A stretch of 9,689 nt of DNA from Enterobacteria phage P-EibC, in the sequence record AF151674.1. One strand, 5' to 3'. The notes beneath the pieces were generated by a model that worked only from the letters and a program-made list of their open reading frames with translations, was not told the origin of the DNA and made no database searches. Shown here in pieces: positions 2,573 through 3,043 of this stretch (position 1 is its first letter; each line of letters opens with the position of its first letter). A program made the translations under genes and the position numbers.

Positions 2573-3043
2573 ATGAAGGTGATTCTGGCTACCAGGAACC
2601 GCTATCTGGAGTATGGTCTGCAGGCGTTACTGAAGGGGCACAGTGTGATACTGGCGAGGGAGTTTTTCCTGCCGGAGAACCGCCGTTATATCCCGGACTT
2701 TGACGAATCCTGGCTGATAATCAGTGATGGCCTGCTGGGCAGGCTGATGCGCTGTATGTTCCAGGGGCGTCATTTTCTGCAACTGGATGCGGAGTTGCTC
2801 CGTGATGGTGAGCAGATAAGTGATGCCATACACAACGGCGTCTGGACGTATAACAGTGCTGCCCGCCCGCTGACGATGTCAGAGATGGTGGTGATGTTCG
2901 GTTATGTCTACCGCCAGTCGAGACCCTGCCGCCTTGCCAGTGAGATGGGTATTAACACAAAGACGGTGAATACCTTTCTGTATACGGGAATGGCGAAAAA
3001 CGGGCTGTATGGTGTGAGCGTCAGACGGCTTGTTGGTGCCTGA
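2573..3043 (+). CDS. Small LuxR/GerE-type helix-turn-helix transcriptional regulator (156 aa from ATG 2573; ORF track start 2543 less likely)
   Basis: The C-terminal approx 55 aa (LTMSEMVVMFGYVYRQSRPCRLASEMGINTKTVNTFLYTGMAKNGLYGVSVRRLVGA) follow the LuxR/GerE HTH pattern (LTxRExEVL...LGISxKTV...KLGV). The N-terminal domain (MKVILATRN...) lacks the acidic pocket of a canonical receiver. AGGAAGG at 2558-2564 sits 8 nt before ATG 2573; ATG 2543 lies inside the upstream terminator T-run with no SD. Confidence 0.55.
   Translation: MKVILATRNRYLEYGLQALLKGHSVILAREFFLPENRRYIPDFDESWLIISDGLLGRLMRCMFQGRHFLQLDAELLRDGEQISDAIHNGVWTYNSAARPLTMSEMVVMFGYVYRQSRPCRLASEMGINTKTVNTFLYTGMAKNGLYGVSVRRLVGA

Follow-up and report, generated by a model that had tools for sequence, protein, structure and literature searches.

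ORF-156 of the P-Eib prophages is probably a divergent, atypical NarL/FixJ-LuxR regulator carried as mobile-element cargo

Gene order and expression of the orf-156 locus

The window (i.e., the whole stretch of DNA that was analysed, 9,689 nucleotides of Enterobacteria phage P-EibC, record AF151674.1) holds the right end of a lambdoid prophage, as judged from the list of open reading frames (ORFs) and their Pfam and NCBIfam matches. The first gene in the window is a DUF4376 tail-fibre-associated gene at 24-611. It is followed on the + strand by an eib-type trimeric autotransporter gene at 970-2484 (Pfam YadA_anchor, 5e-16; YadA_head, 3e-12), by orf-156 at 2573-3043 including the stop codon, by orf-60 at 3043-3225, and by a SPATE autotransporter gene of the EaaC/EaaA type at 3317-7324 (Pfam Peptidase_S6, 3e-83; Autotransporter, 5e-36), which is an optional part of the module. 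The dinI gene lies on the opposite strand at 7691-7939, and a host-type isochorismatase-family hydrolase gene is present at 8294-8893. The original prediction placed the regulator gene downstream of the eib-like gene and directly upstream of the SPATE gene; the first half of this description stands, while the second does not, given that orf-60 lies in between.

The same layout is found in prophage P-EibA of E. coli ECOR-9 (GenBank AF151091, Sandt and Hill), in which the order is orf-191A, a stem-loop, eibA, a stem-loop, orf-156A, orf-60A and eaaA. The coordinates of orf-191, of the stem-loop at 844-872 and of the eib start in the window are those of AF151675 and AF151676. The SPATE of the window presents 99.4% identity to EaaA, with 8 residue differences, and 8 residue differences are also quoted between EaaA and EaaC (PMC3153244).

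The orf-156 gene encodes a protein of 156 amino acids. A Shine-Dalgarno sequence, AGGAAGG, is located at 2559-2565 on the + strand, 7 nt before the ATG, within a purine-rich block that is conserved in the alignment. Given that an alternative upstream ATG at 2543 is not conserved in the homologues, 2573 is the real start. The product is identical to RefSeq WP_001539080.1 ("hypothetical protein") and 97-99% identical to GenBank ORF-156A and ORF-156D. In GenBank the reading frame has been annotated as "ORF-156" since 2000 in the P-Eib prophages of E. coli ECOR-9 (ORF-156A, D and E; AF151091, AF151675, AF151676), although literature searches found no published functional study of it, in keeping with the earlier remark that no such regulator is known to have been characterised for eib/eaa loci. 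Against six homologues, orf-156 yields dN/dS values of 0.10-0.26, which indicates that it is expressed and constrained (i.e., under purifying selection). It is a real gene.

Homologues of ORF-156 range from 99-100% down to 31% identity and come nearly all from E. coli. The family is tiny: a search of 1.84 billion representative proteins yielded 38 cluster representatives with E<=1e-3, and among these 38 matches no bridge to any named family was found. One match from this search was discarded as a spurious repetitive protein. The ORF-156 family is thus very narrow and almost confined to E. coli mobile elements.

An intrinsic terminator, consisting of a hairpin and a T-run, follows eib at 2508-2542 on the + strand (terminator scan; RNA folding energy of -30.9 kcal/mol, z of -2.6) and stops about 30 nt short of the orf-156 ATG. 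The hairpin between the two genes is annotated as a stem_loop in AF151091, AF151675 and AF151676, and a terminator hairpin is always present in diverged YadA/orf-156 loci, with lineage-specific sequences. A simple promoter scan found no sigma-70-like promoter upstream of orf-156 on the + strand. Since the gene lies so close to the eib terminator and no promoter could be recognised for it, we infer that orf-156 is expressed by read-through. It would be made either by partial read-through from eib or by Q-antiterminated phage late transcription at induction, and it would be co-produced with the overlapping small membrane-protein gene orf-60.

The orf-60 gene (60 codons, + strand; ORF-60A and ORF-60D in GenBank) starts with an ATG that overlaps the orf-156 stop codon (ATGA). 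The conserved part of its product is limited to the last 40-43 amino acids or so, which comprise a basic stretch and then one transmembrane helix: residues 18-60 match phrog_9340, residues 19-60 are conserved by tblastn, and hydropathy exceeds 2 over residues 36-60. Between orf-156 and the start of the SPATE gene, the terminator scan returned one weak site only, inside orf-60. No RNA family was found in the window with Rfam.

The two domains of ORF-156

The ORF-156 protein of the window has no Pfam or NCBIfam match at E<=1. The Pfam search named with the original prediction therefore came back empty for this protein, and the link to GerE needs either structure or a profile built from distant homologues. 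PADLOC gave no match for it either. With PHROGs, the protein falls in phrog_6585, a family with no assigned function, and presents a weak match to a family labelled 'transcriptional regulator' (E of 0.087). When the single sequence was compared with PDB sequences, chance matches only were obtained (e.g., protein G and beta-2-microglobulin).

The AlphaFold2 model, produced from a 24-sequence alignment, is confident (pLDDT of 89.9, pTM of 0.85). Four C-terminal helices are modelled at residues 102-153, and this four-helix bundle superposes on GerE and on the C-terminal domain of NarL. The helix-turn-helix (HTH) domain spans residues 100-153, corresponding to 2870-3031 on the + strand. All family members have Thr131-Val132 in the recognition helix of this domain, and at least 90% of them have Lys130.

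Family profiles point the same way. All four matches of a narrow profile (A2) in the PDB are LuxR/GerE HTH proteins, with marginal E-values of 0.09-0.25. Significance required a broad profile (A4), composed of A2-type relatives plus homologues of 31-47% identity, which matches GerE (1fse) with an E-value of 2.6e-4, followed by VraR, VqmA, EvgA, SsrB and NarL. The Pfam GerE cut-off of 23.5 bits is exceeded by both distant homologues tested, plasmid copy L004 (32.9 bits) and fragment P0074 (28.4 bits), and plasmid homologues of 31-43% identity (tblastn E of 1e-20 to 1e-31) carry the PGAP name "LuxR C-terminal-related transcriptional regulator". When the full-length model is searched with Foldseek, the matches are FixJ (5e-4), RcsB (5.6e-4), EvgA, DesR and VpsT, and response regulators are also the top matches of the fold in a viral structure library. 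The C-terminus of ORF-156 is thereby confirmed, at superfamily level, as the GerE/LuxR-type HTH that had been predicted from the sequence. From this modelled domain we infer that ORF-156 probably binds DNA in a sequence-specific manner.

The possibility that ORF-156 is a quorum-sensing LuxR protein was considered and ruled out. Its N-terminal domain is receiver-like and has about 90 residues, against about 160 in quorum-sensing LuxR proteins, and Pfam Autoind_bind has no match in it; TraR, QscR and RhlR match ORF-156 through the HTH only.

Another way to read the bundle is that ORF-156 does not regulate by binding DNA, and is instead a decaying relic or an HTH-like bundle with some other use, such as contacting RNA polymerase in the manner of sigma region 4 or acting as an anti-sigma factor. 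The missing Pfam match for the window protein is consistent with this, and so are the truncated remnants common in Stx phages and the fact that Sigma70_r4_2 is matched by more family members than GerE (8/20 against 5/20). However, the purifying selection on orf-156 and the conservation of Lys130 and Thr131-Val132 in the recognition helix argue against it, the full-length structural matches are NarL/FixJ regulators rather than sigma factors, and a receiver-like N-terminal domain is typical of the NarL/FixJ class. We therefore consider this reading very unlikely.

The N-terminal domain (residues 1-90, corresponding to 2573-2842 on the + strand) is modelled as a shortened receiver-like (beta-alpha)4 fold. 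Asp52, after strand 3 and at the acceptor position, is invariant across the family and is the only residue of the phospho-acceptor pocket to be kept. Where an acidic pair would follow strand 1, the family instead has an invariant Thr7 and an always-basic position 8 (Arg8 in the window protein). Position 72, after strand 4, is variable in the family alignment, with no conserved Thr/Ser, and both the AlphaFold2 model and the alignment lack strand 5 and its Lys. These residue equivalences are set by position in the predicted fold rather than by a computed superposition, and naive pairwise alignments of ORF-156 with RcsB, DctR and GadE did not align the N-terminal domains. The retained Asp52 may pair with the conserved basic residue.

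The description of the N-terminal domain as atypical and devoid of an obvious phospho-acceptor pocket therefore holds, with the nuance that Asp52 is retained. No histidine kinase gene is found near orf-156 among the window ORFs or their Pfam matches, which agrees with the proposed orphan status of the regulator. ORF-156 is probably a small, phosphorylation-independent factor of the NarL/FixJ-LuxR class, in which a truncated pseudo-receiver is fused to a GerE-type HTH.

Distribution of orf-156 and its neighbours

The distribution of orf-156 was surveyed in 5,426 complete E. coli genomes. Any match to the gene is found in 436 of them, and a copy covering at least 80% of it in 184. Among these 184 genomes, approximately 71 present a contiguous junction between a YadA-anchor gene and orf-156, and the junction is missing in the remaining 113 or so. 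The junction between orf-156 and the SPATE gene occurs in about 25 complete E. coli genomes. These values indicate that orf-156 travels with eib often, yet not always.

Four genomic settings can be distinguished. In the first, a YadA-anchor gene is followed after about 85 nt by a copy with 43-100% identity, and a terminator hairpin separates the two. The backgrounds are lambdoid prophages, podovirus-like prophages related to Stx phages, and the conjugative plasmid p100, and a 47%-identical copy from a read-archive assembly also belongs here. In the second, orf-156 is intact and stands alone, without a YadA gene. This setting includes copies of 180 amino acids located after tail-fibre genes, with their own upstream region of about 180 nt and with NleG, EspJ or EspM2 effector genes adjoining, as well as a widespread chromosomal copy adjoining hpaBC; the upstream regions of these stand-alone copies have nothing in common with that of eib. 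The third consists of plasmid copies, 31-38% identical, behind RTX/type I secretion genes; after these copies, a second small regulator, of the canonical GerE-domain kind, often comes next. Such a second regulator also accompanies a 43%-identical copy that sits behind an unannotated YadA-anchor remnant. The fourth comprises the truncated remnants of Stx phages mentioned above, e.g., VT2-Sakai. We also considered whether the copies without eib are decaying genes, and this was ruled out: one of them, annotated by PGAP as a partial pseudogene, is an intact ORF of 180 amino acids.

Family members are usually found immediately 3' of a gene whose product is a surface or secreted protein, namely an Eib/YadA-type adhesin or an RTX protein. 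The SPATE gene, on the other hand, is missing from several loci that have orf-156, with or without orf-60 (P-EibD, P-EibE, GER2, KY173 and P0019-type loci), which suggests it is a later insertion. It is a minority add-on, inserted downstream of orf-60. In summary, the link between orf-156 and eib is real but not obligate, and the link between orf-156 and the SPATE gene is weak. The proposal that ORF-156 is a locus-specific regulator of one or both virulence genes is accordingly borne out in part: orf-156 is cargo of mobile elements and its junction with eib is conserved, yet about 71 of 184 genomes have the YadA junction and about 25 have the SPATE junction.

These counts bear directly on the idea that orf-156, orf-60 and eaa form a single unit, with ORF-156 as the activator of the protease gene. 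Such a role would fit the shared strand, the absence of a strong terminator between orf-156 and the SPATE start, and an eib-leader-like sequence at 3246-3261 upstream of the SPATE gene, although that match was found post hoc. Given that the junction occurs in only about 25 genomes, and that the SPATE-less loci listed above carry orf-156 all the same, specific activation of the SPATE gene is extremely improbable. The 16-nt motif common to the upstream regions of eib (935-950) and of the SPATE gene (3246-3261) was itself discounted, since by our own estimate a two-copy match of this kind in 2.7 kb is at chance level; the pattern was built from those two sites, so its apparent significance is post hoc.

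The same survey is more favourable to ORF-156 being a host-directed or general regulator, i.e., free-standing cargo that reprograms host genes or other prophage genes, with its proximity to eib and eaa caused by a shared insertion hot spot downstream of tail-fibre genes. This would account for the 113 or so full-length copies that have no YadA junction, for the intact 180-amino-acid copies that follow tail-fibre genes with their own upstream region beside NleG, EspJ or EspM2, for the widespread copy by hpaBC, and for upstream regions of stand-alone copies that are unlike that of eib. It does not explain as well the tight placement, about 85 nt behind YadA-anchor genes, which is kept even at 43-47% identity and in phages and plasmids unrelated to each other, nor why distant relatives are again found directly 3' of genes for secreted proteins. 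We consider this explanation possible, although rather unlikely. Nevertheless, given the copies located away from YadA genes and the intact stand-alone copies, the data do not require a dedicated eib regulator.

Candidate targets and comparison with known systems

Eib adhesins, which are immunoglobulin-binding proteins responsible for serum resistance and for adherence in a chain-like pattern, are poorly expressed in many strains. A gene for a regulator that accompanies eib in different phages and on a plasmid is an obvious candidate for the control of this expression.

The 358-nt region upstream of eib is AT-rich, with 32.5% GC against about 53% in orf-156. Within it, the sequence TAAGACAAATCCTA at 832-845 on the + strand, spotted by eye, matches the RcsAB-box consensus TaAGaa|tatTCctA (PMC3950696) and is a candidate operator. 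The window has one exact match to TAAGN5TCCTA where 0.04 would be expected, and of the 11 exact matches in 335 kb of fetched loci, 10 are upstream of eib. The box is kept as TAAGGAAATTCCGA, TAAGATATTTCCTA and TACGATAATTCCTA in eib upstream regions whose overall identity is just 47-61%. In total, it is retained in four of five diverged eib upstream lineages and missing from the most diverged one. The eib upstream alignments also present a conserved leader element, TTTGTATACAGATAA, at 937-951 on the + strand, 33 nt before the eib ATG.

In the mechanism we propose, ORF-156 would modulate transcription as a DNA-binding dimer, paired either with itself or with a NarL-family protein of the host. The AT-rich promoter region of eib, in which the RcsAB-like box is conserved, would be the best candidate target, and host genes may be an additional or alternative target. 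As an overall explanation, a small NarL/FixJ-LuxR-class factor that is expressed by read-through and has the eib promoter as its candidate target is the one we favour, with moderate confidence.

An earlier result bears on the effect of ORF-156 on eib. Sandt, Hopper and Hill reportedly observed in 2002 that little Eib is produced by K-12 lysogens with whole P-Eib prophages when the ibrAB genes of ECOR-9 are not provided as well. If this holds, ORF-156 does not suffice to activate eib. Taken with the fact that most copies are not accompanied by eib, this suggests that ORF-156 may be a repressor, a co-factor dependent on a signal or a partner, or a regulator of other genes.

ORF-156 is a divergent, atypical member of the NarL/FixJ-LuxR regulators and is carried as mobile-element cargo; the ORF has been known since 2000. 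Recognition as a LuxR-class protein gives a function to phrog_6585 and to the several hundred E. coli genome entries that are labelled "hypothetical protein". The wider impact would be small if ORF-156 were just one more small regulator of the LuxR type with a target of its own.

In comparison with GerE (PF00196), ORF-156 has the same K-T-V in the recognition helix, and its K-N-G turn resembles the K-L-G of GerE. Unlike members of PF00196, the window protein does not reach any Pfam or NCBIfam threshold. As in NarL/FixJ regulators (RcsB, EvgA, FixJ, DesR and VraR), a predicted receiver-like domain precedes a LuxR-type HTH, and Foldseek assigns these full-length matches a probability of 0.98-0.99. 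The receiver is nevertheless smaller, at about 90 residues in a (beta-alpha)4 arrangement against about 120 residues in (beta-alpha)5, and, in contrast with NarL/FixJ regulators, ORF-156 is without the acidic pair, the Thr/Ser and the Lys, and its locus has no kinase gene.

Closer in type are the auxiliaries of RcsB. RcsA, BglJ, GadE, MatA and DctR bind DNA through a LuxR-type domain and do not undergo phosphorylation themselves; several of them are horizontally acquired, silenced by H-NS and tied to a locus, and MatA belongs to a fimbrial operon (PMC5651002). As modelled, ORF-156 resembles DctR/YhiF, GadE, MatA/EcpR, BglJ and RcsA in being a small LuxR-type protein with a non-phosphorylated N-terminal domain, and alignments show a shared N-terminal T-[KR]-[DN] motif. 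It differs from the RcsB auxiliaries in being about 20 residues shorter, and in being borne on prophages and plasmids rather than located in the acid fitness island. When profile A4 is compared by hhalign with the DctR family (profile A6), the alignment is full-length, with a probability of 54% and an E-value of 1.3e-4, which represents weak similarity and not established homology. The E-value is 0.011 against GadE alone and 0.0012 against RcsB, the latter through the C-terminal domain only, and hhalign against single GadE, DctR and RcsB sequences is weak (probabilities of 0.5-28%).

Given that RcsB works with non-phosphorylated LuxR-type auxiliaries and that ORF-156 has this weak similarity to the DctR family, a role as an RcsB auxiliary is a coherent and testable hypothesis. 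By analogy with MatA, GadE, DctR and BglJ, ORF-156 would be a prophage-borne auxiliary that forms a heterodimer with RcsB on the RcsAB-like box about 140 nt upstream of eib. Since orf-156 would be transcribed by read-through of the eib terminator, this would create a feedback loop through which envelope or surface signals reach Eib expression. We regard this version of the mechanism as speculative and unlikely as it stands, and a literature search found no work that links RcsB and Eib. If it is true, members of the wider family would be mobile-element regulators that sit 3' of genes for adhesins and RTX proteins and bring horizontally acquired surface proteins under Rcs control.

A further comparison is with the known regulators of eib itself. 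IbrA is a PAPS-reductase-like protein and IbrB is ParB-like, and both are encoded on a separate island. They are the published activators of eib expression, with experimental support reported by Sandt, Hopper and Hill in 2002. Both IbrAB and ORF-156 are factors of the accessory genome that have been proposed for the control of eib, and they are unrelated in sequence.

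Identity and layout of the prophage segment

The gene coordinates at the 5' end of the window are those of GenBank AF151675 and AF151676, and the SPATE differs from EaaA at exactly 8 residues. For these reasons, eib is probably eibC, and the SPATE gene eaaC, of the P-EibC prophage in ECOR-9, as judged from the sequence. At the 3' end, dinI is followed by a PRK11440 isochorismatase-family hydrolase gene (8294-8893), an arrangement that looks like the prophage-host junction.

The small ORF orf-60 (3043-3225, + strand) overlaps the stop codon of the regulator gene orf-156, whereas around 60 nt separate the two genes in other lineages. 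Conservation of orf-60 in these lineages is confined to its last 40 or so residues, which comprise a basic stretch and one transmembrane helix (phrog_9340). Its product is predicted to be a small tail-anchored membrane protein. In L001, the one 100%-identical record inspected, orf-60 is unannotated by RefSeq.

Candidate regulatory elements upstream of eib

The eib upstream region (612-969) has a GC content of 32.5%, in comparison with approximately 53% for the flanking genes. Such low values are typical of horizontally acquired promoters silenced by H-NS. An RcsAB-box-like sequence, TAAGACAAATCCTA (832-845, + strand), lies about 138 nt 5' of the eib ATG and adjoins an AT-rich palindrome (844-872). 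This sequence is kept in diverged eib promoter regions, outside which the 335 kb of related loci contain almost no copies of it. The candidate site suggests the Rcs system may control Eib expression; a literature search found no paper dealing with both RcsB and EibG. Closer to the gene, 33 nt 5' of the start codon, the conserved element TTTGTATACAGATAA (937-951, + strand) is nearly invariant among eib loci, the remainder of whose upstream regions share around 50% identity. Its role might be that of a core-promoter element, a leader element or an operator.

Remnant and intact copies of the regulator gene

Many Stx1 and Stx2 phages, including VT2-Sakai (locus L005, 4001-4296), carry a truncated orf-156 remnant corresponding to residues 21-77 and 119-156. 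The remnant, which accounts for 161 of the 173 orf-156 matches among phage records, is located directly 3' of the tail-fibre genes, and the same site in the related prophages KY173 and GER2 is occupied by a module of eib, orf-156 and orf-60. It looks like a scar remaining after the loss of this module. A remnant of similar kind is responsible for most of the partial orf-156 matches found in the complete genomes of E. coli. The homologue in L029 (NZ_CP027582.1, 4001-4543) is an intact ORF of 180 residues, labelled by PGAP only as a partial pseudogene; it is in an effector-carrying prophage and adjoins NleG and EspJ genes.

Tandem regulators and RTX-linked loci

Three loci have a tandem pair of small regulators, in which the orf-156 homologue comes first and the second protein has a canonical GerE domain (Pfam E-values of 1e-10 to 1e-13). 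These pairs are found 3' of a YadA-anchor remnant (L006, 6001-7116), in an RTX/type I secretion locus (L007, 6001-7012), and beside an upstream gene with no Pfam match (L023, 2195-3208). In two RTX-linked loci, a gene encoding PAPS_reduct and DUF3440 domains (L020, 9559-9678; L021, 9548-9667) starts approximately 6 kb 3' of the orf-156 homologue. We take this domain composition to be that of IbrA, one of the published activators of eib expression.
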